From a bacterium (GTDB taxonomy: Bacteria; Patescibacteriota; Gracilibacteria; UBA4473), in contig JAACPJ010000001.1 in the NCBI GenBank assembly GCA_009995455.1, positions 150,991 to 214,990 of the forward strand: DNA of 64,000 bases, given 5' to 3'. The first letter of the stretch is position 1, and each line of letters opens with the position of its first letter. A program made the position numbers and the translations under genes. This document shows, piece by piece, positions 3,507-63,426 of this stretch. Below the pieces are notes generated by a model, which was given only the letters and a program-made list of their open reading frames with translations, was not told the DNA's origin and did no database searches.

Positions 3507-4451
3507 ATGCCTGAGGAGGAAGAAAAAAAAGAATCGACCGAGAAAAAATCGCAGATTACACCCGCGGAGGCAGAAAAGCGTGTCAGTACGGCTGTAGCTG
3601 AAGTGATTCCGGACGAAAACGATAGTTTGTTAATTGAAGAAGATGGTGACCCTTTTTGGGTTATTCAGAGAGTCTTTTGGGGCATTTTAAAAACGGGCGC
3701 CTTACTGGCTTTGCTGCTTTTTTTAATTTGGTTGGTTTGGAGGCCAAGTTCTTTTTTGGGCAACGGAAACGAGCCTGAATTTGAGTTTGAACCAGAACAA
3801 GTCGAAGAAGTACAAGTGCCAGAAGAAAATAGGAATGCCCCTTGGTGGAAACGCCTTTTTGGGGGCGGTGATGAAACGCCTGAACCAGAATTTACACCTG
3901 AAAACCCAGAAAATCCAGCACCACAAAATCCAAATTTAGAATCAACCGATCCTACGCAAATTGCGTACGAATTAGAAACGGCACGAGTATTGCTGGTTCG
4001 AGGTATTATTCCGCAATCGGTGCAATGGTTAAGGCAGGCAAAAACGGTGGGGGAGATCTCGATGCAAGTGCTACGGCAGGGTTCGCCGCAAGCGCGTTCA
4101 CGGCAAATTGAAGAAATCTTGGCCGCCGCTGACGACTTGTTTGTCCAATCCGCTAATTTACAAATTCAGCTGCAAGCCGAAAGAGATTACTTTTTAACCG
4201 AAGGGAATGCCGCCAATGCTAGAACGGCTGAATTAGAGCAGCAAATTGCATATGCCCTGCAAGTGCTGGATCCGGTTCCGGTGGAGGCTTTAGTGGCCGA
4301 AAAAATTGCTTCTCAGCAAAACGCGAGCTTTTTCATGTCGAACGCTAAAATCCGCGATACACTAAATCGAAATATCCAAACTTTCGATCAGCTTCTACGA
4401 CAGCGCTCCATTCCGCTGTTAAACCCGGCCACGGAGATTCGCGCCAACTAA
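3507..4451 (+). CDS. hypothetical membrane-anchored protein
   Basis: 314-aa ORF with an acidic N-terminus, one hydrophobic helix (VFWGILKTGALLALLLFLIWLVW), a P/E-rich linker and a helical C-terminal part. No recognised family. Confidence 0.5.
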   Translation: MPEEEEKKESTEKKSQITPAEAEKRVSTAVAEVIPDENDSLLIEEDGDPFWVIQRVFWGILKTGALLALLLFLIWLVWRPSSFLGNGNEPEFEFEPEQVEEVQVPEENRNAPWWKRLFGGGDETPEPEFTPENPENPAPQNPNLESTDPTQIAYELETARVLLVRGIIPQSVQWLRQAKTVGEISMQVLRQGSPQARSRQIEEILAAADDLFVQSANLQIQLQAERDYFLTEGNAANARTAELEQQIAYALQVLDPVPVEALVAEKIASQQNASFFMSNAKIRDTLNRNIQTFDQLLRQRSIPLLNPATEIRAN

Positions 4452-6105
4452 AAAGCAAACCTAAATTCTTTTTCAAACGCTGCCGTACCGGCTTTGGTAA
4501 GTTGATTTGCCGCGGCCAGTCTGTTTCATACATATCTTGCATTTCTATTTCTAGCGAAGTTTTATCCACCGCTGTAGATTCATAGTGGTAGGCCATTAAA
4601 GATTCTTTCCACTGAGGGCGGTTTAACAGTACCGCAAAAAAATCGTCTTGGGCTTGATCCTTTAAGTTTTCGTTCAGGCTTTCTTGCAGAATTTGTTCGA
4701 CCACGGCTAATTGTGCTTTTGCACTGCCAACATTAGAATTACTGCCACCTGGGTCTATTCCGACAATCGTTTCAATGGCGGTGTGACTTTCACCACTTTG
4801 ATCGGTAACGGTTAGTTTGAGCTCGTGTTCACCGGCCGTTTCAATATAAAACCCGGCTGGATTTTTTTGATCTGAAAGAAACTGCTGATCAAATTCCCAA
4901 AGAAAAGTTTTTAAGTCTTTTGGGCCATCTGGATCCGTTGAATATTCACCCGTTGGGTTGAGCAAAAACGAAACCTTGGCGACGGATTTTTTTGAACCTT
5001 GCAACGTAATAATGGCTTTAGGAGCTTGGTTTTTAGTTGTATTTTCTTGCCCCCGAGAACCGTTAAAATGCTCAAACCAATCGGTGTTTAGTTGGTTATC
5101 ATTTCCCCCAATGGGGCGCGCGACAGATTGATTTGGAACTAGGTTTTCAATCGAAACGCATTCGCTTTTCCATTGACCGGCTTCAATAAATTTTTGCACT
5201 CTTTTTCGTTCGGTTTCGCTTAATTGTTTCTTTTGCCAACATAACGTATCCATCCATGTTTCTTGGCTAGTTCCCGCAAAACTAATCAATTCTACGGTGC
5301 CAGAACCGCCCGATAAACCATCACGTTTATTGCTATGGAATAAATGCTCTCCGGCTTTGCCTTGGTCTGGTGTGCCAATTAAAAAGGTGAGTATATCTCC
5401 TGGACTTACAAAATAAGCCTCCTCAAAATACCAAAGCGGCGTGCCGTTATGTTTTAATTCGGTGTACTGCAGGTTTATTTTTTCTGGTCCTGAAGCGATT
5501 TTTATTTCAATAAAATCAGCCACGTCACTATCAACCGAGACCTCATTTATTAAAGCCCTAAACTCTGTTGAAGTGGTGGCGAGTATGGGATTTTTTTGCC
5601 CCTTAGAAGACTCAAAACCGACTTGATGTGGCGCGCGAACGTTAATCGTTTTGAGCTGCTTTGTCGGTTCGTCCCAAACTAAAACTTCACGTTCTTCGTA
5701 ATCTTTGGTCGACCGGCTCGCAGCTTTTGGGTAATTAATCTGATTTAAAATGGCCCCTTCACCATTTAAAATTTGCAGGGTTCCACCATCGTTGGGAAGT
5801 CCAATTGGACTCGGTGAAAACACGAAATAGCCCTTTCCCTCTAAGGCAAAAACTAATGGGTTTTCGGTGACTTGAACGCCTTCGCCAGGCATTATTTTAT
5901 CTATTATATCGGTGAACGGTTTGGGCTTATTTTTGTCATTGCTTAGCTGCCATTCACTCAAATCAACTTCACCCTTTTGTGTCACTTCAAACTCAAACCA
6001 TTCGGGTTCATTGGCTAAAGTATGGGGAGCAATTTCGGTGATTTGCACCGTTTGGGCTAAAGCCAAAGCGGGAGCCAGTACTCCAATAAGCATTAAGGTT
6101 TTCAT
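4345..6105 (-). CDS. secreted protein with lamin-tail-like (LTD) segments and a PKD-like domain
   Basis: Signal peptide MKTLMLIGVLAPALALAQT. LTD-like strings ITEIAPHTLANEPEWFEFEV and INEVSVDSDVADFIEIKI. PKD-like HELKLTVTDQSGESHTAIETI. Confidence 0.6.
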   Translation of the reverse strand: MKTLMLIGVLAPALALAQTVQITEIAPHTLANEPEWFEFEVTQKGEVDLSEWQLSNDKNKPKPFTDIIDKIMPGEGVQVTENPLVFALEGKGYFVFSPSPIGLPNDGGTLQILNGEGAILNQINYPKAASRSTKDYEEREVLVWDEPTKQLKTINVRAPHQVGFESSKGQKNPILATTSTEFRALINEVSVDSDVADFIEIKIASGPEKINLQYTELKHNGTPLWYFEEAYFVSPGDILTFLIGTPDQGKAGEHLFHSNKRDGLSGGSGTVELISFAGTSQETWMDTLCWQKKQLSETERKRVQKFIEAGQWKSECVSIENLVPNQSVARPIGGNDNQLNTDWFEHFNGSRGQENTTKNQAPKAIITLQGSKKSVAKVSFLLNPTGEYSTDPDGPKDLKTFLWEFDQQFLSDQKNPAGFYIETAGEHELKLTVTDQSGESHTAIETIVGIDPGGSNSNVGSAKAQLAVVEQILQESLNENLKDQAQDDFFAVLLNRPQWKESLMAYHYESTAVDKTSLEIEMQDMYETDWPRQINLPKPVRQRLKKNLGLLFSWRESPWPGLTAEWSAVVEADRKFGYFDLVYRGF

Positions 6106-6222
6106 GTTTTAATTTCTAAGTCCTCATGCGTTTTTCAGCAACGACCAAACAACATGAAACCTTCATGAAGATTGGAAGCCCCTTAGTTGCTGAAAGTCTT
6201 TAAATCACTAGTTTAAAACGGA

Positions 6223-7542
6223 ATGGTACGGTTACTTAAATTATATGCTTTGCGGGGTGGCGTTTTGCTAGGAATTTCAGCTTTGGGCTCGAAATTCCTG
6301 GGGCTCTGGCGTGACCGGTTAGTGGTTTCGACTTTTTCACCCGAGAGTTCAGACTTGGTTTACGCCGCGTTTCGAATTCCAGATTTCTTTTATTATTTGC
6401 TGGTTGGTGCCACGGTTTCGGTAATTTTTTTACCGCGGTTAGTAGGTTTGTCAGAGCGAGAAAAAATAGAGTATATGAGTTCCTTTTTGTGGGGTGTTTT
6501 AGTGTTTTTTGGCGTTTTAAGCGCCTTTTGTTTTTTAATGGCTCCAGTTTTAGCTACCTGGTTCGCCTCTGGGTTTTCACCAGACATACAACAAGGCGTG
6601 TCCAATTTAGCTCGTTTTCTTTTTGGGTCTGTTTTTCTGTTATCACTTTCAAGCGTATTTGCCGCCGCCCTGCAAGCGCAGCAACGGTTTGTCTCAATTG
6701 CATTAGCGCCATTGTTTTACATGGGTTTTATTGCCTTGGGGCTTTATGTGTTTAAAGATTATTTTGGAGTTAACATTGTCGGATACGGCGCTTTGGCCGG
6801 CGCGATAACCCATTTGCTGATTACCAGCGGGGCTTACTTTTTGACTGGGCAAAGGGTGGCACTCGTGTGGAAAAAACCAGCCGCCGCCTGGCTAAATTTT
6901 TGGCCAGATTTTGGCAGACGCGTTTTTAATAACGCCGCTTTTCAAATAAACCAAACCGTCGACATTTTAATTGCTTCTTTTTTGGCCATAGGCGCTGTCA
7001 CCTCTTTCACCTTGGGCACGAATCTGGGGCATTTTTTGCTTTCAATTGTCGGGCTATCAGTAGCCAATTCGGCTTTTCCAAAGCTGGCAAACGCAAAACA
7101 CAATTACCCGCTGCAACGTAAAATTTTGCTCTCTTCGGCAAAATGGATTTTTTTCTTTTGTGCTCCGGCGGCAGTGGTCTGCGCGGTTTTTTCAACTCAA
7201 ATTCTACAACTGCTTTTTACGCTAGAGAACGAGCGTTTACAAATGGCGCAAGTCGTCTTTTTCTGGACGGTAATTAGTTTGCCTTTGACCTGTGTTTTGC
7301 CGTTACTGGCACGGGTTTTTCTGGCTAATGATGATACCGTTAGCCCTCTTTACGCTACTATTATTTCTTTAGTGGTCGCCACCAGCACAGCGGCCTATTT
7401 AAGTTTGGTGTATTTACCTAAAGATCAAGCCATTCTGGGTTTAGCGTTGGGCAATTTCGTCGCTAACACATTAGGTTTTATTTTATTTATCAGTTTAATC
7501 TGGTGGAAATACGAACGTGTTCACAAAAATAATCATGTTTAA
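6223..7542 (+). CDS. murJ: lipid II flippase MurJ/MviN family
   Basis: 439 aa, polytopic. The N-terminal LGLWRDRLVVSTF...AFRIPDFFYYLLVGATVSVIFLP matches the MurJ pattern (GFxRDxxxAxxFG...AFxxPNxxRRxxxEGAxxxAFVP). Confidence 0.8.
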   Translation: MVRLLKLYALRGGVLLGISALGSKFLGLWRDRLVVSTFSPESSDLVYAAFRIPDFFYYLLVGATVSVIFLPRLVGLSEREKIEYMSSFLWGVLVFFGVLSAFCFLMAPVLATWFASGFSPDIQQGVSNLARFLFGSVFLLSLSSVFAAALQAQQRFVSIALAPLFYMGFIALGLYVFKDYFGVNIVGYGALAGAITHLLITSGAYFLTGQRVALVWKKPAAAWLNFWPDFGRRVFNNAAFQINQTVDILIASFLAIGAVTSFTLGTNLGHFLLSIVGLSVANSAFPKLANAKHNYPLQRKILLSSAKWIFFFCAPAAVVCAVFSTQILQLLFTLENERLQMAQVVFFWTVISLPLTCVLPLLARVFLANDDTVSPLYATIISLVVATSTAAYLSLVYLPKDQAILGLALGNFVANTLGFILFISLIWWKYERVHKNNHV

Positions 7543-8428
7543 AGCCGAATTTACCGTTCTCGAATCTGAAGCCGGACAGCGTGTTGACGCTTTGTGCGCC
7601 CTAAAATACCCGCATATTTCGCGATCTCGTTGGACAAAACATGCGGAATTTTTGTGCGAAGAGATGGAAAAAAACGCTAAGACAAAAGTGAAAACTGGTG
7701 AAGAATGGGAAGTCAGCTGTGCTGAAGAATCCAATGTTGATCACCTAGAGCCTTGGGATTATCCTTTAGAAATTTTAGCGGAAACCGACACCTACCTAGT
7801 GATTAACAAACCCTACGGTATTTCGGTTCATCCCTCTAGTTCAGAAAATTCAAACGAAACTATGGTTAATGCGCTAGTGCACCATTTTGGAGCTAATCTA
7901 GCCGAAAATTATGATGAAATTGAAGGCCGAAAAGTCGCGCGTCCGGGGTTGGTTCACCGTTTAGATAAAACCACTTCTGGTGTTTTATTGATTGCTAAAA
8001 CGAATCAAGCACACAAATTTTTTCAAGATAACTGGAAAGACTTCGAAAAAACTTACTACGCTAAAGTTCAAGGAGGTCCACCAGCGAATGGAAAAATTGA
8101 GTCTGGTATTGTACGAGACCCTTACAATCGAAAAAAAATGAAAGCGACCCAAGACCCAGACAAGTGGTCTGTGACAGAGTTTGAAACCATTTCAATTAAA
8201 CCTGGTAACGACGTCATTAAAAGTGAAGCGCTTTTAAAAGTGAATATCAAAACCGGCCGAACGCACCAAATTCGTGTGCATCTCAGTTCGATTGGCTTTC
8301 CGGTGATTGGGGATGAACTTTATGACGGACCAGCAGCCAAACGGATTATGCTGCACGCAACTAGTCTTAAATTTATAGACCCAGATACGGGCAAAGAAGT
8401 TTTGGTGGAAAAAGAACGACCGTTTTAA
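7535..8428 (+). CDS. RluA-family 23S rRNA/tRNA pseudouridine synthase (RluD-like)
   Basis: Catalytic motif HRLDKTTSGVLLIAKT and GRTHQIRVHL. The ORF track starts at a GTG at 7517; the ATG at 7535 is preferred and overlaps the murJ stop by 8 nt. Confidence 0.85.
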   Translation: MFKAEFTVLESEAGQRVDALCALKYPHISRSRWTKHAEFLCEEMEKNAKTKVKTGEEWEVSCAEESNVDHLEPWDYPLEILAETDTYLVINKPYGISVHPSSSENSNETMVNALVHHFGANLAENYDEIEGRKVARPGLVHRLDKTTSGVLLIAKTNQAHKFFQDNWKDFEKTYYAKVQGGPPANGKIESGIVRDPYNRKKMKATQDPDKWSVTEFETISIKPGNDVIKSEALLKVNIKTGRTHQIRVHLSSIGFPVIGDELYDGPAAKRIMLHATSLKFIDPDTGKEVLVEKERPF

Positions 8429-19767: not shown

Positions 19768-19842
19768 TCCCGAGTAGCTCAGTGGTAGAGCAGTTGGCTG
19801 TTAACCAATTGGTCACTGGTTCGAGTCCAGTCTCGGGAGCCA
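19768..19842 (+). tRNA. tRNA-Asn (anticodon GTT), CCA encoded
   Basis: Cloverleaf read by hand. Acceptor TCCCGAG/CTCGGGA. D arm GCTC-AGTGGTA-GAGC. Anticodon arm GTTGG-CTGTTAA-CCAAT. Variable loop TGGTC. T arm ACTGG-TTCGAGT-CCAGT. Discriminator G, then CCA. Confidence 0.9.
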
Positions 19843-39515: not shown

Positions 39516-40005
39516 GCAGAAATTCTGGCTTTTAGTAACGGTAATTTATTTAGTCGGTTGTTCTACTCCAGAGGTTAATACAACCGAGGAAAACACACAA
39601 ACAGTGAACGTTGATTTAACGCAAAATCAAGAACCAGACTTGGTGGTTGAAGCCCCTATGACGGAGCCCTTAAAAATTAATGACCAAGAGTTTTTTGTGG
39701 AAATTGCCGATACACGTGAAGAACGGGAACTAGGTCTTATGAACCGTGAATTTATGCCAGAAAACATGGGTATGATTTTTGAATTTCCAAATACCGCCCC
39801 ACGAAATTTTTGGATGAAAAATACCTTGATTCCGCTCGATATGATCTGGCTGGATGAAAACAAAACCATTGTCGATATTCAAGCGGCCGAACCTTGCACG
39901 ACCGAAGAATGTGCGGTTTACAGCGGAAAGGCACCCGCGATGTATGTTTTAGAACTTAATAAAGGCGTATTAAAGGCGTCAGTTGGAGACCGGGTAGAGT
40001 TTTAA
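39514..40005 (+). CDS. DUF192-family lipoprotein
   Basis: Lipobox VIYLVGCS. DUF192 core ADTREERELGLMNREFMPENMGMIFEF...FWMKNTLIPLDMIWLD...YVLELNKG. Confidence 0.7.
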   Translation: MQKFWLLVTVIYLVGCSTPEVNTTEENTQTVNVDLTQNQEPDLVVEAPMTEPLKINDQEFFVEIADTREERELGLMNREFMPENMGMIFEFPNTAPRNFWMKNTLIPLDMIWLDENKTIVDIQAAEPCTTEECAVYSGKAPAMYVLELNKGVLKASVGDRVEF

Positions 40006-42950
40006 AAAGCGGTTTCAATTTTTAAGTCGGGTAAACCGAGTTCTTCCAAGGCGTCCAAATCTTCTTGGCTGCGTGCCACAATAATAACGCCTTCTTTTTG
40101 GCAGTGTTGCATGACGGTTTCAAAACTTACAAAAACAGGTTCGGTTTGAACAAATAAGCCAATATCCGCTTTCTGCCACATCGAAATTAAGGTTCGAATA
40201 AAGTTGCAGTTCTCGGCTTCACCGTGAGTGAATGTGAACTCGGACGCTGCTGTAGGAGAGGTAATTTGAACAAACTGTGACTGCTCTTCTGGGCTCAGTA
40301 AATCCCAAGCTTCTAAGGCTATTTTAGTCATGCGCTCAGAAAAGGCTCCCACACTTGAACGATGCGCTAAATCGTCAATTTTTTGACCTTGTTTTAGGGT
40401 TTGCCAAAGTCGTAATACGGCATATTTCTGCCAACGGGCATCGTTTAGAATCAAGTCATAATCGACTTGGGATTTAGCGGCATCAAAATGCTTTTCTTCT
40501 CGAAAAAATGCGTTTTGATAAACCGTTAACCCCGCATCAGCAAAATCGGCCCAACTGCCATCCCATACAAAACCGCGTCCGTTAGCAATAGATTTAATTC
40601 TACCTTTTTCGTTATTAAGTCGATTGACTAAATTTAAGTACGAACTTTTAGATTCTTTACTTGATTTAGCGCGTTTTCTTTCCGTCTTGAATGAAAAATG
40701 ACTGGCATCATTCGGGCGATCTTTTTTGCCCGCTACTAAAGGTGACTTATCGGGTGGAAGAGTGATAATCCCCATCATGCAAACCGTTCCAATCGCCCAT
40801 CTCGCGGCTTCATTTTGCCAAGATTCTGGGGTATTATCTTCAAATTTAAGTTCAAAAATTTCACTTGGACCTTCGGCCTCACGATTAATTTTTATCTGGA
40901 ATTTAATTCCAACATCTTTGATATCAAATTCAATATGATCCAGGACTACGTTTCGGTCTTTTTGGCTTTCCAGCAAACCTTTAACAAAGGTGGCTTTAAT
41001 GCCGGCCTTGGCCAGTTGGGCGGTTAAATGTTTCATTTTAGGAATAAAAGCACTCGCCACACAGGTTTTGTCCCACGAGTATAAAGGCAATTCGAGACCC
41101 TTTGGGCCTCTATGAACCCCTTGTTGATATTCTTCCCAGGGTTTAAAGCTAATGGCTTCGCGGCAAGCTTTTCCTTTCGCTTTTCTAAATTCGTTGGCCT
41201 GTCTCCACTCAGAAATTTCGCGTCGAATCTTTTCTCTTTTCTCTAGAGCCGAATCTTTTTCCTGTTTCGCAATTGCCCATGAAACCAGCAATGCCATTAA
41301 CTCATCATCTAAATCGGGCGAAAGTGCTTTAAAGGTTGGATGCACAATTTTTAAAGTCACAGCATCAACGGTGAAAGTCTCTAAGCAATTAAAAACTTTT
41401 GTGCCCGTCCGCGGTGCAAAAGTAATCAAATCTCCCTCAAGTTGAATTGAGGCAAAAATTTCCTCGAATTTATCAATATACTCAATCAGCTGTTCGGCTA
41501 AATGCGTTTGCCAATCAAGTTCATTGGCAAGATCCATCGCTTCTACACACGGCTGACATTTTGTAAGTGGGGTTCTTAAATTGTCAGGTAGAACTGGTTC
41601 AAATTCTTGAATAACAGAAGTCTGAATTTCAGTGGCGACTTGTGGCGCTGGATTAATAACTTTTCTGGTTTCGCACCAAAATTCTTCTGGTACACCGCTG
41701 GTGCTATTGGCATTTGGAAAAGCGGTCGATCTATCGCATAAAAACCCCGACACTTGGTAGTCAAAATTTTGCGGTTTTTCAATAATAGCTTTTTGCAGTT
41801 CTTCCCAAGTGGCAAAACAATAAATGGTCGTGTTTTGCGTTTTTCGGCTTCTCGCAACCCCTCTAACTACCAAGTGTAAAAAAGTACCTGCAGGCCAAGG
41901 ACTGGTTGAAATTTCTAGTTGTCTTCCTCTGCATCTTGAATTAATACTTTGTGGTGGGGCGTATTTTACTTCTGGAGCTTTAATTATTGCTTGAACTTTT
42001 TCCCCCGTGAGTTGAGCCACTCCCTTTGGGGCTTGGATTTCTTTAGCTACTGGGGTGTTTATAAAACGTCTGTAAAACGATTTTGGAATTCCATCCCGGT
42101 ACTCCCACAGGGTTTCAACGGCTTGGAGTAACAATTGGTTTTCATCATTTAAAGCCGTTTGTTTCGTTTCAAAAAATATTTTCCAGAGCGGTAAAAATCG
42201 ATCAGCGGTTAGGGTGTCATCGAAACTTAATTTAGTGCAGACACGTAAAAATACAGCCACTTCCAGAGCGGTTAAAAGCGCTGATTTTAAGGCTTCATTT
42301 TCTTTTAATAAATCTGGTTTTAATAACGCCGGTGTGCACAGAACAATCCACTCAGGGTGAGTCTTAAATTGCTCTATTCCCTCATCACTACTTAAATAAT
42401 TCGTTAATTCTGCGTGTATGTCTTTTTCTAATTTATTAATAGAAGCCGCTTTTTGTACGCCTTTAAGCGGCGGGAAAAAGATTAAACGCTCACTAGAAGC
42501 ATTATGGTTAACAAAGTTCAAGCGGGCGGCGACAGCATTTTTAAGAATTAATTCAGTCGCTTTAGCATGGTTAACTAAAAGGCTTTGGTCATTTTTTTGC
42601 ACAGACTCTTTAACTTGTGCCTGCGCATAAAATTGATTTATGGAGGCCAATAATCGCATAAAAAAATCGTCTAAAGCCCCTTCCTCTAATGCGTAATCTG
42701 GCATCGCCTTAGCCTCAGTCAAATAGTACAAAACCTGGTTAATCGTAATCGATCTTGATTTGGCATAGGCGGCCTTAATACCCTCGGCAAATTCTTGCCC
42801 ATGTTCTATAACTATTTGTGCAATTTCAGTCGCATCCACTATGGCTTGGTGGGTTCGCTCGAAAGTTTCACCGTTATCGGCAAAAACCTGTTCTGCTAGT
42901 AAATTACTTTGGTAGGCTTCAGATTCTTTTAAGGCCAAGGTTCTTCTCAT
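40002..42950 (-). CDS. large hypothetical protein (982 aa, orphan)
   Basis: Uninterrupted 2.9-kb ORF. No signal peptide, TM helix or known catalytic motif recognised. Confidence 0.55.
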   Translation of the reverse strand: MRRTLALKESEAYQSNLLAEQVFADNGETFERTHQAIVDATEIAQIVIEHGQEFAEGIKAAYAKSRSITINQVLYYLTEAKAMPDYALEEGALDDFFMRLLASINQFYAQAQVKESVQKNDQSLLVNHAKATELILKNAVAARLNFVNHNASSERLIFFPPLKGVQKAASINKLEKDIHAELTNYLSSDEGIEQFKTHPEWIVLCTPALLKPDLLKENEALKSALLTALEVAVFLRVCTKLSFDDTLTADRFLPLWKIFFETKQTALNDENQLLLQAVETLWEYRDGIPKSFYRRFINTPVAKEIQAPKGVAQLTGEKVQAIIKAPEVKYAPPQSINSRCRGRQLEISTSPWPAGTFLHLVVRGVARSRKTQNTTIYCFATWEELQKAIIEKPQNFDYQVSGFLCDRSTAFPNANSTSGVPEEFWCETRKVINPAPQVATEIQTSVIQEFEPVLPDNLRTPLTKCQPCVEAMDLANELDWQTHLAEQLIEYIDKFEEIFASIQLEGDLITFAPRTGTKVFNCLETFTVDAVTLKIVHPTFKALSPDLDDELMALLVSWAIAKQEKDSALEKREKIRREISEWRQANEFRKAKGKACREAISFKPWEEYQQGVHRGPKGLELPLYSWDKTCVASAFIPKMKHLTAQLAKAGIKATFVKGLLESQKDRNVVLDHIEFDIKDVGIKFQIKINREAEGPSEIFELKFEDNTPESWQNEAARWAIGTVCMMGIITLPPDKSPLVAGKKDRPNDASHFSFKTERKRAKSSKESKSSYLNLVNRLNNEKGRIKSIANGRGFVWDGSWADFADAGLTVYQNAFFREEKHFDAAKSQVDYDLILNDARWQKYAVLRLWQTLKQGQKIDDLAHRSSVGAFSERMTKIALEAWDLLSPEEQSQFVQITSPTAASEFTFTHGEAENCNFIRTLISMWQKADIGLFVQTEPVFVSFETVMQHCQKEGVIIVARSQEDLDALEELGLPDLKIETAF

Positions 42951-43162: not shown

Positions 43163-46100
43163 ATGGAAAAAGCCTATAACCACCTGAATTCAGAAGCCGA
43201 TATTTATAAAGCTTGGGAAGAATCTGGCGCCATGCGCGCAGATGAAACGTCAAACAAGCCGCCCTTTACGATTCCTTTGCCGCCACCGAATGTAACGGGA
43301 GAATTGCATTTAGGGCACGCCGCTATGCTGGCGATTCAAGATATTTTGACGCGTTATAAAAAAATGCAGGGCCACGAAGTGTTGTGGTTACCAGGCACCG
43401 ATCACGCTGCTATTGCGACTGAAAATGTGGTGATCAAGCATCACGGTAAGCAGTCGCGTGAGGAGTGGCCGAGTCGGGAAGACTTTATGGTTGACGCTAA
43501 AGCTTTTGCCGATGAAAAACACGACAACATTGTGAATCAAATGAAGCGAATGGGATCGTGGCTTGATTGGAGCCGCGAAGCCTACACCTTCGACGAACCG
43601 CGAAATTTTGCCGTAAACCGAATTTTTAAAGATTTATATCAAGACGGATTAATTGAGCGTGGTTATCGCCTCATTAACTGGAGCGTGGGCGCGCAATCGG
43701 TACTATCTGATGACGAATTAGAATGGGACGAAGTCAAAGAACCTTTTTTCTATATCAAATGTGGAAAGTTTATTATGGGAACGGTTCGGCCAGAAACCAA
43801 ATGTGCTAACTCGCCATTAATCGTGCATCCAGATGAAGACTACGTGGAATTTGAAAATTCAGCAGGAGAAAATTTTATCGTGATCAAGCGTTTGTATGAC
43901 GACAAAGAAAAATTTTTCAAAACCCTTAATTTCTTAGACGCTGACGCGGATTATAAAGTTTTAAAAACCACGAAAGGTTCTGATTTAGTGGGCGAAAAAT
44001 TTAGCGCCGAAACCTATGCGGGAATGCGAGATTTTTACGTGATCGCTGACACGGTCATTGACCCAGAAAAAGGCTCTGGAGCTATGACCATTTCAGCGTC
44101 CCATTCAGCCGATGATTACAATTTAGCTAAACGTTGGGAGAAGTCCCCCTTGTCAAAGGGGGATTTAGGGGGATTTATGCCGCCGAAAGATTGGTTTATT
44201 CAAAAAATTGATTTTGCAGGGAACATGACCGAAGTGGCGGGCCCAGTGGCGGGCTTTTCAGTGAAAAAAGCACGGAACGTTTCGGGTAAATTACTAGAAG
44301 AAAAAGGGTTGCTGGTCGGGAAAGACATAAATTACGAACACCGAGTACCGCTTTGTTACCGGTCTAGTTGCGTGGTTGAACCGATGATTTCGCCGCAGTG
44401 GTTTATTATGGTGGAAAAAGAATACACCCACGCACTTGATGGAAAAACAACGTTGAAAAGGCAGATGCAAGCCGCCGTCCGTGGCTTTGAAAATGAAGAT
44501 CCAGCGGTTCAAATCATTCCGGAACGCTTCAACAAAGAATATTTTAGATGGATTGATAACCTGCAAGATTGGTGTATTTCACGCCAGATTTGGTGGGGAC
44601 ACCGAATCCCGGTTTGGTATGACGAACAGCAAAATATTCATTTAGCCGAAGAACAAGAAATCATCTTTGCGCGTCACGGTGAAAGTGTCGGCAATCGTGA
44701 TAGTAAGGTGCAAGGCGTGGATGATCCGCTCACCGATAAAGGCCGAGCGCACGCGCAAGAAATGATTGAGGTTTTAAAATCTGAAAATGTGGGCGTGATT
44801 GTAACGGGCACTTCGGCCAGAAATACCGAAACCGCCGATATTATTGCCAACGGTTTAGGCGTTAAAGTGGTGCATATTGAAGAACTAAGTTCTTATGATA
44901 CGAAAGACGTAGCCGGTATGAGCATTGATGATATTGGTCGAGTGGCCGCCATAAAATACTGTAAAGAAAACGGGAAAGGGGAAGATTTTGACGTCTTCGT
45001 TGAACGTTTAAGAATTGGTTTAGAGAAATTAAAGGCCGTGCGATCAAAGGGAAAAATTGTGTTTGTCACCAATCGTTCTATTTACTCGGTACTGCAAGTG
45101 CTACGAGATGGTGGAGATACGTCTGATATTTTTGAAAAACGATCAAAAAATTCACATTTACCACACGGAGTTATTGATCGTTGGCCTATTTTCCAAGCGC
45201 CCGATTTGCCAAATTTAAGACAAGATGAAGATACGTTAGACACTTGGTTTAGTTCGGCCTTGTGGCCGTTCTCAACCCTTGGTTGGCCGAATAACGAGGC
45301 GCCCGATTTACAAAAATTTTACAACAACGCCGTTAATGGCCAAGGGACAGATGTTCTAGAAACTGGTTGGGATATTTTGTTTTTCTGGGTGGCGCGAATG
45401 ATTATGTTTGGCCGTTATGCCACCAATAAATTTCCGTTTCATACGGTTTATTTGCACGGTATGGTAACCGATGAACACGGTAAAAAAATGTCGAAATCAA
45501 AAGGGAATGGGATCAATCCCATTGATATGATTGAAGAATACGGAGCCGATCCGGTTCGTTTGGCTTTGGTGATTGGTTCTACGCCAGGGCAAAAAATTCC
45601 GATTGGCCCCAATAAAATTAAAGGCTACCGAAACTTTGTAAATAAAATGTGGAACGCCACCCGATTTGTGGGCCTGCAATCAGCTGACTCTGAAACAGGA
45701 GCGTATGAAAGATCGGTTCCGACTCAGCCGTCAGCAGACAATTTAAGTCTTACCGATCAATGGATTTTATCTAGACTTAGCACCGTTTGCGCCGAAGTTA
45801 AATCGTCGCTTGAAGCGTATGATATTTCAACCGCTGGAGACAAGATTTATCACTTTGTTTGGGGTGAGTTTTGTGATTGGTATTTAGAAGCCGCTAAAGT
45901 GGAACCAAACATTGATGTACTGAGGTATGTGTTAGCCGAGATTTTAAAACTAACCCACCCGCTGTGTCCGTTTATCACGCAGCAATGTTGGCAAGAACTG
46001 TTTTCAGACAGCCTGATTATTGAGGAATCATTTCCAAGTTTAAGTCTTGAAAATCCAGAAGCGGTTAAGCAATTCACAACCGTTCAAAATATTGTGGGGG

Positions 46101-46495
46101 CGATTAGAACTTTGCGGGCTGAAAAAAATCTGAATCCTAAAGATAAAATTGCGGCCGGTATCAAAACCGATGAAGCGCATTTAAAATCGGCTTCAGATCT
46201 CGTAAAAGCCTTAGCTAATCTTTCTGATTTAGAAGTTGCCGCTCAAGCAATAACACCGGAACATAGTGCCACCACGATTGTCGATAATTTAGAAATTTTT
46301 GTTGATATACCCTTCGATGCGGATGCAGAAGCGGCTCGAATCGAAAAATTGAAAACGGAATTGTCTCAAAAAATTGCGGGACTTAAAGGACGCTTAAGCA
46401 ATCCAAGTTACACTGAAAAAGCGCCACCCAAGCTCGTTGCCGAGACTCAGGCACAATTGGAACAAGCTGAGTCAGAGCTGCAAAAACTGAGTTAA
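43163..46495 (+). CDS. valS: valine--tRNA ligase carrying an inserted histidine-phosphatase (PGAM-like) domain
   Basis: HIGH (ELHLGHA), CP1 editing ([23 protein letters not shown]), [39 protein letters not shown], and a C-terminal coiled coil. The insert between [10 protein letters not shown] and [12 protein letters not shown] begins [12 protein letters not shown]. Confidence 0.9.
   Translation: [1110 protein letters not shown]
44145..44176. repeat. G5/C5 palindromic repeat element, in-frame copy inside the valS editing domain
   Basis: CCCCCTTGTCAAAGGGGG-ATTTA-GGGGGATT, translated as [11 protein letters not shown] between AKRW and [10 protein letters not shown]. Confidence 0.6.
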
Positions 46496-46576: not shown

Positions 46577-47581
46577 ATGAAAAGGGGACTTTTGATCGGA
46601 TTACTTCTCGGATTGTTTGGTGCCTCGGTCGCCCGGGCTGCGATTAATAATATTGATTTTATTCCGAATAAAACCCCAGGAAGCGCTATGTCAGCGTTGG
46701 AATTTAATACCATCATAAAAACTTTAGTGGGCATTGATCGTGATGACAAAAACACCAGTTTACTAGATGATGACACCTATGGTATTGGAATTGCTGATGG
46801 ATATTCACCAACCGAAAAGTTAGAAGTTAATGGGAATGTTAAAGCCACGGCCTTTATTGGAGACGGCGCTTTACTGACCAATGTAACCACAACCAGTCTT
46901 TGGGCTGAAAGTGGGGGCAATATTAATTATGGAAGTGGAAATGTGGGAGTGGGCGATGCTTCGCCTGAAGAAGCTTTGACGGTGGCGGGAATCGTAAAAG
47001 CGACCAATTTTATGTACCCAGATGGAACTTTAGTTTCAGACACGGGCGGTGGCGCTAGCGGCGAATGGACGGCAAATGGTTCTAATATTTACCGAGCCTC
47101 TGGATATGTGGGAATCGGAGTTCCAGTTCCCACGCAAACTTTAGATATCAACGGTCCTTTACGGGGGCGAAGTGTTATTACGGCGGCAGATCCTTGGGAT
47201 GGAACCGGGATTCAGATTGGAGGGAATTTACTGGGGTGGGCAAATCAAGGCGGAACCAACGATGCTGATTCGGTCAATGGGGCACCTGACTTGTGGCTGA
47301 CAGCTAGCAATCAAGTTTATGTTCGTTCGCCTGGGGGTTTAAATGTAAATCAGAAAGTTTCATCGCCTTCCTATTGTGATGAAAACGGGCTCAATTGTTT
47401 TGGAACGCCTCGAATTGATATCTTTAAAATTACTACCCAAACTTCTGGTCTGACAGAAGACGCTGACACGGCTTGCCAAGCGAGTGGATATCAAGGTTAC
47501 TGGGCGGGTATGAACCAAAATGGTTCAGAAATTATTTTGTGTTATGTTATTTCAGGAATTCCCATTTATCTCAATTATTAA
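46577..47581 (+). CDS. secreted protein with three tail-fibre-like G-x-G-x-x-x-P-x-x-x-L-x-V-x-G repeats
   Basis: Signal peptide MKRGLLIGLLLGLFGASVARAA. Repeats GIGIADGYSPTEKLEVNGNVKATAF, NVGVGDASPEEALTVAGIVKATNF, YVGIGVPVPTQTLDINGPLRG. Confidence 0.55.
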   Translation: MKRGLLIGLLLGLFGASVARAAINNIDFIPNKTPGSAMSALEFNTIIKTLVGIDRDDKNTSLLDDDTYGIGIADGYSPTEKLEVNGNVKATAFIGDGALLTNVTTTSLWAESGGNINYGSGNVGVGDASPEEALTVAGIVKATNFMYPDGTLVSDTGGGASGEWTANGSNIYRASGYVGIGVPVPTQTLDINGPLRGRSVITAADPWDGTGIQIGGNLLGWANQGGTNDADSVNGAPDLWLTASNQVYVRSPGGLNVNQKVSSPSYCDENGLNCFGTPRIDIFKITTQTSGLTEDADTACQASGYQGYWAGMNQNGSEIILCYVISGIPIYLNY

Positions 47582-47583
47582 AC

Positions 47584-48258
47584 ATGCAGGTTAAACATTT
47601 ACTCCTTTTAGTTGTTTTGATTCTAATGATCCCACCGGGGTTTTATTATTTGATGAATCAGAGTTCAAATCCTGAAAAAGAAGAACCCTTCGAGTATGAA
47701 GTGGTTCAAACGGGTCCTGACTCAATATCAGTTAAAATTTCTGAAAACGGAGAAGCGGCAGAAAGCCCCTACTACGACCAATTCGTTAAAAAAATTAAAA
47801 GCACCCCTACGTGGCTGGTTCAAGATGCTAACTTTCAGGGTTGTGTGACCAAAGCGGTAGACAATTGTGTGGCTAATACCACTCAAAAAGAAGCCCAGTT
47901 ACTTCAATCAGATAGCTTGTGTGACGCTCTGCCTCCTTCAGAAGCCGCTAATTGTAAAAATCAATTTCACTACACCAAAGCCATTCAAACCAAAGATATA
48001 AGTTTATGTGAAAAAATTACGAATGAGTTTCAAAGAAACGCCTGTCAGAACGGAGTTTTCACTCAAAAAGCCTTGGAAACCCGCGACCCGCGTTGGTGTG
48101 ACAAAGTAACTACCGCCAGTAACACCACTCCAGGGCTGGTAAGTCCGGAAAAACAAAATTGTTTAAACTTGCTGGACTTACAAAGAGGCGCTTCTGACAG
48201 TACTTTTTTGAATAGCGACTGGGATGACGAAGTGATGCAAGAAACAATTTTAAATTAA
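47584..48258 (+). CDS. secreted/anchored Cys-rich repeat protein
   Basis: Start at MQVKHLLLLVVLILMIPPGF (ATG 47584; the track start at 47473 overlaps the upstream gene). About four ~30-aa repeats, each with paired Cys (C...NC.N). Confidence 0.5.
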   Translation: MQVKHLLLLVVLILMIPPGFYYLMNQSSNPEKEEPFEYEVVQTGPDSISVKISENGEAAESPYYDQFVKKIKSTPTWLVQDANFQGCVTKAVDNCVANTTQKEAQLLQSDSLCDALPPSEAANCKNQFHYTKAIQTKDISLCEKITNEFQRNACQNGVFTQKALETRDPRWCDKVTTASNTTPGLVSPEKQNCLNLLDLQRGASDSTFLNSDWDDEVMQETILN

Positions 48259-52341: not shown

Positions 52342-52416
52342 GCCGTCGTAGCTCAGTGGTAGAGCACCGCCATGGTAAGGCGGGGGTCCCGGGTTCAAAT
52401 CCCGGCGACGGCTCCA
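52342..52416 (+). tRNA. tRNA-Thr (anticodon GGT), CCA encoded
   Basis: Acceptor GCCGTCG/CGACGGC. D arm GCTC-AGTGGTA-GAGC. Anticodon arm CCGCC-ATGGTAA-GGCGG. T arm CCGGG-TTCAAAT-CCCGG. Discriminator T, then CCA. Confidence 0.9.
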
Positions 52417-62892: not shown

Positions 62893-62946
62893 GTGTGGGA
62901 CTTTACTTTTAGCGATCTTTGAACTACAAATCAACTGCTCTTTCGA

Positions 62947-63305
62947 GAGGCAATACGTCTCGAGTAATCGAGGTGAGGAAAGTCCGAGCTACCAGCGAAT
63001 GCGCATTTACGGCTAACGGCCGCTCCGTGATTTGGTAACATTTCATGAGGGAAAGTGCCACAGAAACTATACGGCGTCCCGCTTTGCGGGAAAACCGGTG
63101 AAAAGTCCTTTTAAGTTAGGAAATCTAAGGCGCAAGCTTTAGAAGTTGGAAAACCCAAGTGGGTAGCTAGGCGGGTGGCCCGGAGAGTGTTAGTTTGCAT
63201 TCCAACGTTGATCACGTTCCGGTTCCGTCGCTCGAGGTGTTTAGTAATAAACATCCCAGATAAATTTTGCCTGAAAAACAGAACTCGGCTTACCAGAGAG
63301 AGAGC
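62947..63305 (+). ncRNA. rnpB: RNase P RNA (bacterial type A-like); ends approximate (+/-15 nt)
   Basis: Conserved blocks GAGGAAAGTCCGAGC (62985-62999), AGGGAAAGTGCCACAGAAA (63058-63076) and ACAGAACTCGGCTTAC (63278-63293). CTCTTTC at 62948 can pair with GAGAGAG near 63298 as P1. Confidence 0.85.
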
Positions 63306-63426
63306 CCCTTCCGGGGGAAACCAGTTTCCCCCAGAGACCCCCTTCTTAAGTTGAAGTCGCTTACTTAGGGAACCCGCAAGACCCTAAGTTTCGCTCCCTT
63401 TAAAAATATGTCATGCTTTAATTGAA

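Follow-up and report, generated by a model that had tools for sequence, protein, structure and literature searches.

A histidine-phosphatase-fold module in the CP3 loop of valyl-tRNA synthetase and its recurrence in class Ia synthetases of Gracilibacteria/Peribacteria-type bacteria

The valyl-tRNA synthetase (ValRS) described here is encoded in a 64,000-nucleotide (nt) stretch of contig JAACPJ010000001.1 (assembly GCA_009995455.1; the whole stretch is called the window below) from a bacterium of the Gracilibacteria. Few enzymes are as strongly conserved as the bacterial aminoacyl-tRNA synthetases, and these rarely contain an entire additional enzyme domain. We found that in the ValRS of the window the small Zn-knuckle loop of connective peptide 3 (CP3) has been replaced by a complete histidine-phosphatase-fold module and that a single fold occupies three or more different loops in two paralogous synthetases, ValRS and isoleucyl-tRNA synthetase (IleRS), having entered these loops or been exchanged among them; it occurs in one to four copies, with its catalytic residues mostly preserved. 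Judging from the sequence, we lean toward the view that the window encodes a functional ValRS of a standard-code bacterium of the candidate phyla radiation (CPR; Gracilibacteria/Peribacteria group) with a selected phosphate-binding module that would be catalytically slowed or repurposed.

The valS gene occupies window positions 43163..46495 (all parts of the gene given below lie on the forward strand, +) and, in the open reading frame (ORF) list, consists of 1110 codons and a TAA stop, with no in-frame stop. Its WWGHRIPVWY and DTLDTWFSS motifs are separated by 203 residues (WWGHRIP begins at residue 477, nt 44591), whereas the equivalent interval of P0128, a ValRS with no insert at that site, is 31 residues long and carries a Cys-x2-Cys...Cys-x2-Cys knuckle. 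Ordinary ValRSs have ~30 residues at CP3, usually a Zn knuckle, and Thermus thermophilus ValRS has only ~20 unaligned residues at the insert point.

The Pfam family His_Phos_1 (PF00300) recognized the insert with 74.7 bits (E=1e-20; gathering cut-off, 21.7), with residues 500-642 aligned to profile positions 1-153 of 194, and a profile made from 17 such inserts matched CobC (6nru) at 9e-28 and PhoE (1ebb) at 5e-27. An AlphaFold2 model of residues 491-684 had a predicted local distance difference test score (pLDDT) of 95.1 and a predicted template modeling score (pTM) of 0.91. When this model was compared with the PDB by Foldseek, the top 50 matches all belonged to the histidine phosphatase superfamily (prob 1.00; template modeling score normalized to the query, TMq, 0.57-0.74), the best of them being small branch-1 phosphatases: 9mmh, 1h2e (PhoE), 4ij5 (PspA), CobC, and Rv2419c. 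The insert has the fold (TMq 0.71-0.73, prob 1.0) and a size similar to those of PhoE/YhfR (1H2E, 1EBB), the alpha-ribazole phosphatase CobC (6NRU, 6E4B), the phosphoserine phosphatase PspA (4IJ5), and the riboflavin-pathway HFP (9MMH), and the PhoE/CobC/PspA motifs RHGE..N, LT..G, S..R..TA, and GE are all present in it. Unlike PhoE, CobC, and PspA, it is embedded in another enzyme and has Asn for the second His and Ser for the general-acid Glu; inserts of its kind (type A, described below) also add a conserved tail, R.KN....HG(I/V). These results confirmed that the extra segment is a branch-1 histidine-phosphatase domain of ~190 residues, of the PhoE/CobC/PspA type.

The insert begins with an N-terminal linker, DEQQNIHLAEEQE (44621..44659, residues 487-499), whose IHLAEEQE is invariant in four genes of the window's clade and is resembled by IHLP.EQK in distant ValRS inserts. 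The histidine-phosphatase-fold domain itself (44660..45178, residues 500-672) was delimited by PF00300, the AlphaFold2 model, Foldseek, and residue mapping. It opens with IIFARHGE (44660-44683, residues 500-507), which contains the nucleophile motif R504-H505-G506 (44672-44680), and continues with N511 (44693-44695), the Asn of RHGxxxN; TSARNTETA (residues 550-558), which contains the second Arg, R553 (44819-44821); S577 (44891-44893), in the general-acid Glu column; the GE motif, GE606-607 (44978-44983); VTNRS (residues 635-639, 45065-45079), in which N637 (AAT, 45071-45073) stands in the second-His position; and the type-A tail, RSKNSHLPHG (45140-45169), with R660, K662, N663, and H668. The last beta-strand and the C-terminal linker, RWPIFQAPDLPN, follow at 45179..45214 (residues 673-684; strand 179-188 of the insert in the model). 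In the AlphaFold2 model, the first and last beta-strands are the two sequence ends of the module, and with these end strands adjacent, the module would plug in as a side branch that leaves the synthetase undisturbed.

Most of this had been anticipated in a preliminary description made from the letters alone. It gave the interval as ~190 residues against ~25-45 in typical ValRSs, which the counts of 203 and 31 bear out, and it reported an ordered set of branch-1 motifs, with which the PF00300 match and the motif positions agree. Its placement of R504-H505-G506, in frame at nt 44672-44680, was exact, and its reading of the second conserved His as Asn in VTNRS is confirmed by the AAT codon of N637. 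It had also named profile searches and structure prediction as a check on which the proposal would fall if no fold match appeared; the His_Phos_1 match, the pLDDT of 95.1, and the Foldseek probability of 1.00 answer that point. An addition to it is that the general-acid Glu position is substituted as well (Ser577).

Specific phosphatase equivalogs of NCBIfam were not reached by the insert alone: scores were 38.6 against a cut-off of 162.9 for CobC (TIGR03162), 43.2 against 225 for dPGM_arch (NF038349), 38.5 against 350 for PspA (NF045917), 36.5 against 261 for GpmB (NF002901), and 14.2 against 74.5 for SixA (TIGR00249). Because no specific equivalog came near its cut-off, only membership in the superfamily can be claimed, and no substrate. 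Assignment of a substrate from the NCBIfam equivalogs or from the nearest PDB relatives was dropped, as all of the matches were generic.

The position of the domain in the synthetase can be read from IleRS, through whose homology the CP domains in the first half of ValRS were named. In IleRS, ARDWNVSRNRYWG is the CP2-CP3 linker, which is part of the tRNA-site pocket and is followed by CP3 and then by the second Rossmann half (PMC7955072); the linker pattern preceding CP3 is WxxSRxxxWG (PMC7955072). CP3 topology varies among IleRSs, a Zn motif being present in some and absent in others (PMC7191050). By sequence, DWCISRQIWWGH of ValRS is the homologue of the IleRS CP2-CP3 linker, and the insert therefore lies in CP3, a peripheral and variable region outside the Rossmann core. 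The earlier placement of the insertion in the catalytic core thus holds for the linear sequence but not for the structure. In two relatives, P0243 and P0039, the phosphatase domain stands between the two Cys pairs of a knuckle that has been kept (WYCLHCK...insert...CSKCGK...QDEDTLDTWFSS), an arrangement that seems to reflect how the domain originally entered. The window lineage has no knuckle cysteine at all, residues 470-700 containing only C471 and C600.

On either side of the insert, the host enzyme is an intact ValRS of otherwise ordinary architecture, as the following sequence and model comparisons support. The first Rossmann half, CP core, CP1 editing domain, and CP2 span 43202..44620 (first stretch of Pfam tRNA-synt_1, residues 14-521, and motif positions), with the HLGH motif of the Rossmann half at 43307-43318 (residues 49-52) and the CP2-CP3 linker motif WCISRQIWWGHRIPVWY (44570-44620) closing this part just before the insert. 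The second Rossmann half (45215..45754; HMMER alignment to 1gax over residues 678-1103, and motif positions) starts with LRQDEDTLDTWFSS (45215-45256, residues 685-698) and contains KMSKS (45485-45499, residues 775-779). The anticodon-binding domain (45755..46150, residues 865-996; Pfam Anticodon_1, E=2e-34) and the C-terminal coiled-coil tRNA-binding arm (46316..46489, residues 1052-1109; Pfam Val_tRNA-synt_C, E=1.4e-9) complete the protein. Both valS equivalog cut-offs of NCBIfam were passed (NF004349, 822.3 bits versus 704; TIGR00422, 746.5 versus 612.1), and the ValRS substrate-site and class I motifs are present (PPPNVTG at residues 40-46, HLGH, DTLDTWFSS at 690-698, and KMSKS). T. thermophilus ValRS aligns on either side of the insert with E=2.7e-143, and a full-length AlphaFold2 model, built on a shallow alignment of 11 sequences (mean pLDDT 78.5, pTM 0.70, with the insert the part of highest confidence), had T. 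thermophilus ValRS (1gax_A) as its top Foldseek match (E=6e-53; template modeling score, 0.80 normalized to target). The genetic code is standard, TGA being the stop of 4 of the 33 long ORFs in the window.

Compared with the T. thermophilus ValRS-tRNA(Val) complex (1GAX/1IVS), the window enzyme has the same Rossmann halves with HIGH and KMSKS, CP1, CP2, anticodon-binding domain, and C-terminal coiled coil, and it differs in having a ~190-residue phosphatase fold for the ~20-30-residue Zn-knuckle segment after WWGHxIPxWY. It differs from bacterial ValRSs in lacking the Zn-ligand cysteines and in its CP1 motif, GAMTISASHSADDY, which replaces ..LKVTPAHD.NDY. This CP1 editing motif lies at window positions 44078-44119 (residues 306-319; canonical ValRS, ..LK(V/I)TPAHD.ND(Y/F)), and Thr stands, as mapped by eye, in the expected position of the Lys, which we take to be K277 of Escherichia coli, a residue important for editing. 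The canonical LKVTPAHD is kept in the insert-bearing relatives P0127, P0134, and L005. Editing may be altered in the window's clade.

We considered whether the insert could stem from a chimeric assembly or from a pseudogene with a frameshift, or whether it could be a selfish element that, like an intein, is excised from the protein. The sequence is of metagenome origin; a relative, L001, is broken by frameshifts; and a direct repeat lies at the 3' junction. This repeat is 37 nt long with 28/37 positions identical (window positions 45180-45216 and 45282-45318), a number of matches reached by 0 of 300 codon shuffles. One copy codes for the C-terminal linker of the insert, RWPIFQAPDLPN, and the other for GWPNNEAPDLQKF, which belongs to the ValRS core and lies 34 residues farther downstream; P0121 and P0287 have the same pair of peptides. 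The repeat may have been left behind at the junction when the domain was inserted. A search for marks of mobile elements at the insert found no step in GC content or skew, and all repeats were short, the 37-nt one being above chance. Against an artifact stands the fact that 49 indexed blocks of independent public assemblies contain the identical, full-length 1110-residue protein. Of the contigs with it, we inspected 24, which came from different JGI samples and reached 398 kb in length, and NCBI holds accessions from several assemblies under the name "class I tRNA ligase family protein [bacterium]." Intact orthologues stand at five other loci, and the same uninterrupted architecture is found at L004, L007 (= P0121), L008 (= P0287), and L011, with 72-89% identity in the insert. 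The chimera or frameshift that would have undone the preliminary description is excluded by these data, and its claim of a genuine in-frame insertion between two intact halves of ValRS is upheld by the valS cut-offs and by 1gax_A as the best structural match.

Moreover, the insert is under purifying selection. By the Nei-Gojobori method in four orthologues, dN/dS (the ratio of nonsynonymous to synonymous substitution rates) was 0.06-0.16 in the insert and 0.03-0.06 in the rest of the gene, values that are rough since dS was saturated (>1), although the constraint itself is clear. The blocks of the insert that are invariant in the clade are RHGES..GNRD..KVQG.DDPLT, GTSARN.ETADI, IVFVTNRSIYSVLQVLR, and KRSKNS.LPHG; the cap region varies. 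An intein or selfish element was rejected, there being no Hint domain and no splice-junction residues: Pfam matches at E<=1 included no Hint/intein family, and the junctions, ..WYD|EQQ.. and ..LPN|LRQ.., lack a Cys/Ser...His-Asn-Cys/Ser/Thr pattern. As for L001 (positions 4369-8188, GCA_942491595.1), which encodes a ValRS with two phosphatase domains split by frame changes into four called genes, its neighbors FtsH and UvrD are broken too, which points to a noisy assembly. Genetic code 25 was considered for its split valS, ftsH, and uvrD and was rejected, as the breaks are frame changes in an error-rich assembly rather than in-frame TGA codons. We regard an artifact or intein as effectively refuted and give it almost no credence.

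To judge the catalytic state of the domain, we mapped its residues onto PhoE by profile alignment; the PhoE general-acid Glu and second His are presumably E83 and H151. R504, H505, G506, N511, R553, and GE606-607 are present in the window insert, and R504, H505, N511, and R553 are invariant in the clade. Arg-His is present in every one of the 47 embedded or related domains compared (47/47), the equivalents of N511 and R553 are nearly invariant, and the second His is kept in every domain except those of the window's clade (Asn) and one stand-alone protein (Tyr). In a wider set drawn from the top 150 representatives, 162 of the 169 alignable domains have His at this position; Asn is confined to the window's clade, where the window and four orthologues have N637 in common. 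The general-acid column, whose loop alignment is less certain, holds Ser577 in the window and Glu in 156 of ~185 other domains (~85%); an Asp, Asp579, lies two residues beyond Ser577. Most copies in the family retain the full catalytic set (Arg-His, Arg, Glu, and His) at 25-30% identity. Within the clade, the most conserved parts of the insert are the pocket-forming segments and the type-A tail, the latter with four additional invariant polar or basic residues. We concluded from these alignments that two catalytic residues, the second His and the general-acid Glu, have been lost in the window's clade and that the nucleophile and the residues of the phosphate pocket have been retained. One member of the clade, P0287, has both the Asn variant in CP3 and a fully canonical copy, of tail type B, at another site.

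The wider family emerged when the insert by itself was searched exhaustively against 1.84 billion representatives; scans of GTDB and metagenomes added further members. A word-index search found nothing with the insert alone and, with its flanks, mostly flank-matched ValRS fragments, among which PF00300 was present only in P0001 and P0039. For the locus scans, the alignment of 17 inserts proved too diverse, and a 6-sequence type-A alignment with a single peptide pattern was used instead; the scans gave at least 3 loci in GTDB and at least 13 in metagenomes, numbers that are lower bounds and not prevalence. In total, at least 20 distinct ValRS sequences have from one to four histidine-phosphatase domains, at two sites. 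A single domain in CP3 was seen in P0121, P0125, P0126, P0131, P0134, P0143, P0153, P0233, P0235, P0243, L005, L006, L012, and L014. In P0128 the single domain is located elsewhere, at a second site flanked by the CP-core strand (..SPQWF..) and the CP2 helix (..TTLK..). One domain at each site is found in P0122/P0287, P0124, and L001, tandem domains in CP3 in P0127, and four domains in all in P0123. The 1538-residue P0124 also has an extra segment of ~240-280 residues, of unassigned nature, at residues ~630-870, between its first phosphatase domain and CP2.

Such domains are also present, in CP3 or in the anticodon-binding domain, in no fewer than seven IleRS sequences, and insert-bearing IleRSs scored 857 and 830 bits against an ileS equivalog cut-off of 621. 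P0132, P0149, and P0217 have one or two domains in CP3; P0157, P0231, and P0259 have one in CP3 and one in the anticodon-binding domain; and P0171 is an IleRS fragment that starts with a domain at the anticodon-binding-domain position. All examples with a named organism are "Candidatus Gracilibacteria" or "Candidatus Peribacteria," the latter being the host of P0149 (MBT4020988.1). On the distribution of the insert, which the preliminary description had proposed to trace by alignment with orthologues, these sequences show that it is one of a family of such insertions in ValRS and IleRS and not a single oddity.

Stand-alone proteins of ~176-183 residues (P0129, P0133, and P0138) carry the same two tail types as the inserts, type A ending in R.KN....HG(I/V/F)W and type B in W.M.N.E. 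In a neighbor-joining tree, which is rough and without support values, stand-alone, site-1, and site-2 copies are interleaved within each tail type. Site 1, the CP-core/CP2 junction, is ordinary uninserted sequence in the window, VEKEYTHALDGKTTLK (compared over window positions 44400-44560). P0287 (L008, 6001-9834), which is syntenic with the window and ~82% identical to it outside the insert, has its type-B domain there; its presence in so close a relative and absence from the window therefore imply recent gain, loss, or allele exchange. Taken together, these distributions show that, in these bacteria, the connective-peptide loops of class Ia synthetases have taken up small phosphatases of this kind repeatedly or have exchanged them with one another. 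Four loci of stand-alone relatives (L009, 292-1303; L025, 3484-5540; L027, 1309-3161; L029, 3025-4543) were recorded, and the neighbors of stand-alone copies, an anecdotal set, are RNA and nucleotide genes: one lies directly after a NUDIX gene, one 2 nt after an RNase Y gene, one overlaps the end of a TRAM/tRNA-U5-methyltransferase-family gene, and one is divergent from a TilS-FtsH pair.

What the module does can be outlined, conditionally, from its conserved residues. The family as a whole would be a real phosphatase tethered to the synthetase. The copy in the window probably still binds a phosphorylated ligand and may be phosphorylated on His505, with slow or no turnover, so that efficient phosphatase activity is improbable; most probably, this copy would be a ligand-binding, regulatory, or structurally required module near the entrance for the tRNA 3' end. 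Immediately before the insert comes the CP2-CP3 linker, a segment that in IleRS forms part of the lining of the tRNA-binding pocket (PMC7955072), and our leading guess for the ligand would be a nucleotide or an RNA-end phosphate. Several points weigh against this picture of a slowed or repurposed module. Its functional part is drawn from the conservation of residues, and the dN/dS values are rough, as noted above. The general-acid column falls in a less securely aligned loop and lacks Glu in ~15% of the remaining domains as well, and the inserts far from the tRNA 3' end, such as those in the anticodon-binding domain of IleRS, argue against a mechanism that depends on precise placement. In addition, Asn could still form a hydrogen bond to phosphate and D579 is a possible acid, so the domain may be more active than we suppose.

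Carried further, this last point gives an account that we hold to be possible, if not probable: the domain could be a fully competent phosphatase with substitute residues (D579 as the acid, N637 as a hydrogen-bond donor, or R660, K662, N663, and H668 of the tail) that acts at the synthetase on a nucleotide (AMP, ADP, Ap4A-type products, or PPi [pyrophosphate]) or on a 3'-phosphate or 2',3'-cyclic phosphate at the tRNA end before charging. The strict conservation of the nucleophile and both arginines in a core under purifying selection, the four further invariant polar or basic residues of the type-A tail, and a site adjoining the linker that lines the tRNA 3'-end pocket all speak for it. A weak hint comes from the stand-alone relatives beside NUDIX, RNase Y, RNA m5U methyltransferase, and TilS genes, but this evidence is anecdotal, and genes for RNA and translation functions abound in small CPR genomes. 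In mycobacterial MutT1, which hydrolyzes 8-oxo-GDP, a histidine-phosphatase domain is fused to Nudix, and in Rv2228c of Mycobacterium tuberculosis one with alpha-ribazole or acid phosphatase activity is fused to RNase H; both act on nucleotides. The NCBIfam models of these fusions of a CobC/PhoE-like domain with a nucleic-acid or nucleotide enzyme (NF052459 for MutT1; NF005567 for the RNase H/acid phosphatase) match the insert weakly; both, however, are end-to-end fusions with other partners, whereas the window domain is inserted within a fold. Set against a competent phosphatase are the occurrence of Asn at the second-His position in none of ~160 other domains, the simultaneous loss of the general-acid Glu, and the additional canonical domain of the close relative P0287, which suggests that the Asn-variant copy is not the source of any ordinary phosphatase activity. 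Moreover, the sequence names no substrate, no NCBIfam equivalog cut-off having been reached. At the other extreme, the domain could do no more than stand in structurally for the Zn-knuckle CP3 that was lost, as a stable plug on which the synthetase fold depends and which has neither ligand nor catalysis. CP3 is a variable, replaceable subdomain, every knuckle cysteine has gone from the window lineage, two catalytic residues are substituted, and several loops accommodate domains of this kind, all as a plug would have it. A structural role alone, however, would not keep R504, H505, N511, R553, and GE606-607 invariant, would not produce conserved pocket segments beneath a variable surface cap, and would not preserve the whole catalytic set across the family at 25-30% identity; we consider a mere plug improbable. 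If the module were such a filler, it would still make a useful catalogue entry, of modest importance.

For the family at large, the recurrence of the domain with preserved catalytic residues is a sign of a function under selection and linked to tRNA charging. A bolder proposal, which we regard as doubtful, is that the recurrent module gives the class Ia synthetases (ValRS and IleRS) of Gracilibacteria/Peribacteria-type CPR bacteria a built-in second activity or a sensor, which would either take a blocking phosphate off the 3' end of the tRNA, or off a nucleotide by-product, or serve as a phospho-His "switch" that couples charging to the state of phospho-metabolites in the cell; the Asn/Ser form of the window would then be a derived sensor. 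If true, this would be an unrecognized layer of synthetase function or regulation in minimal-genome bacteria.

The nearest precedent for a class Ia synthetase with a whole extra enzyme domain is the IleRS with an N-acetyltransferase (NCBIfam NF040702, ileS_w_GNAT). This model matches the window ValRS only in part, through the synthetase portion, and its added fold is a GNAT and not a histidine phosphatase; NCBIfam has no model for a ValRS or IleRS bearing a His_Phos domain. Full-text literature searches, with partial coverage, turned up no account of a synthetase that contains a histidine phosphatase, which is consistent with the remark in the preliminary description that its author knew of no described synthetase with this architecture, yet the proteins were already public as "class I tRNA ligase family protein." Both folds and synthetases with extra domains were known before, and the architecture is visible in precomputed Pfam annotations; what should surprise specialists is mainly the recurrence, at several sites, in several copies, and in two paralogous enzymes. 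The hosts are uncultured, episymbiotic bacteria with small genomes, whose biology is otherwise hard to reach, and the canonical, Asn/Ser-substituted, single, and tandem forms make up a natural set of variants for probing the role of the module. The architecture is also a marker that breaks automatic annotation and a case study of domain insertion into essential enzymes.

Around valS, the genes without a recorded Pfam family are a 982-residue ORF upstream (40002-42950, -) and two downstream ORFs at 46577-47581 (+; 334 residues) and 47473-48258 (+; ~224-261 residues). Relatives repeat the same unannotated neighbors, followed by VIT1 and RadA, and these neighbors give no hint of the function of the insert. 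Elsewhere in the window are ordinary RNA genes, namely a class A bacterial RNase P RNA (62937-63309, +; 148.6 bits), tRNA-Asn(GTT) (19768-19842, +), and tRNA-Thr(GGT) (52342-52416, +).

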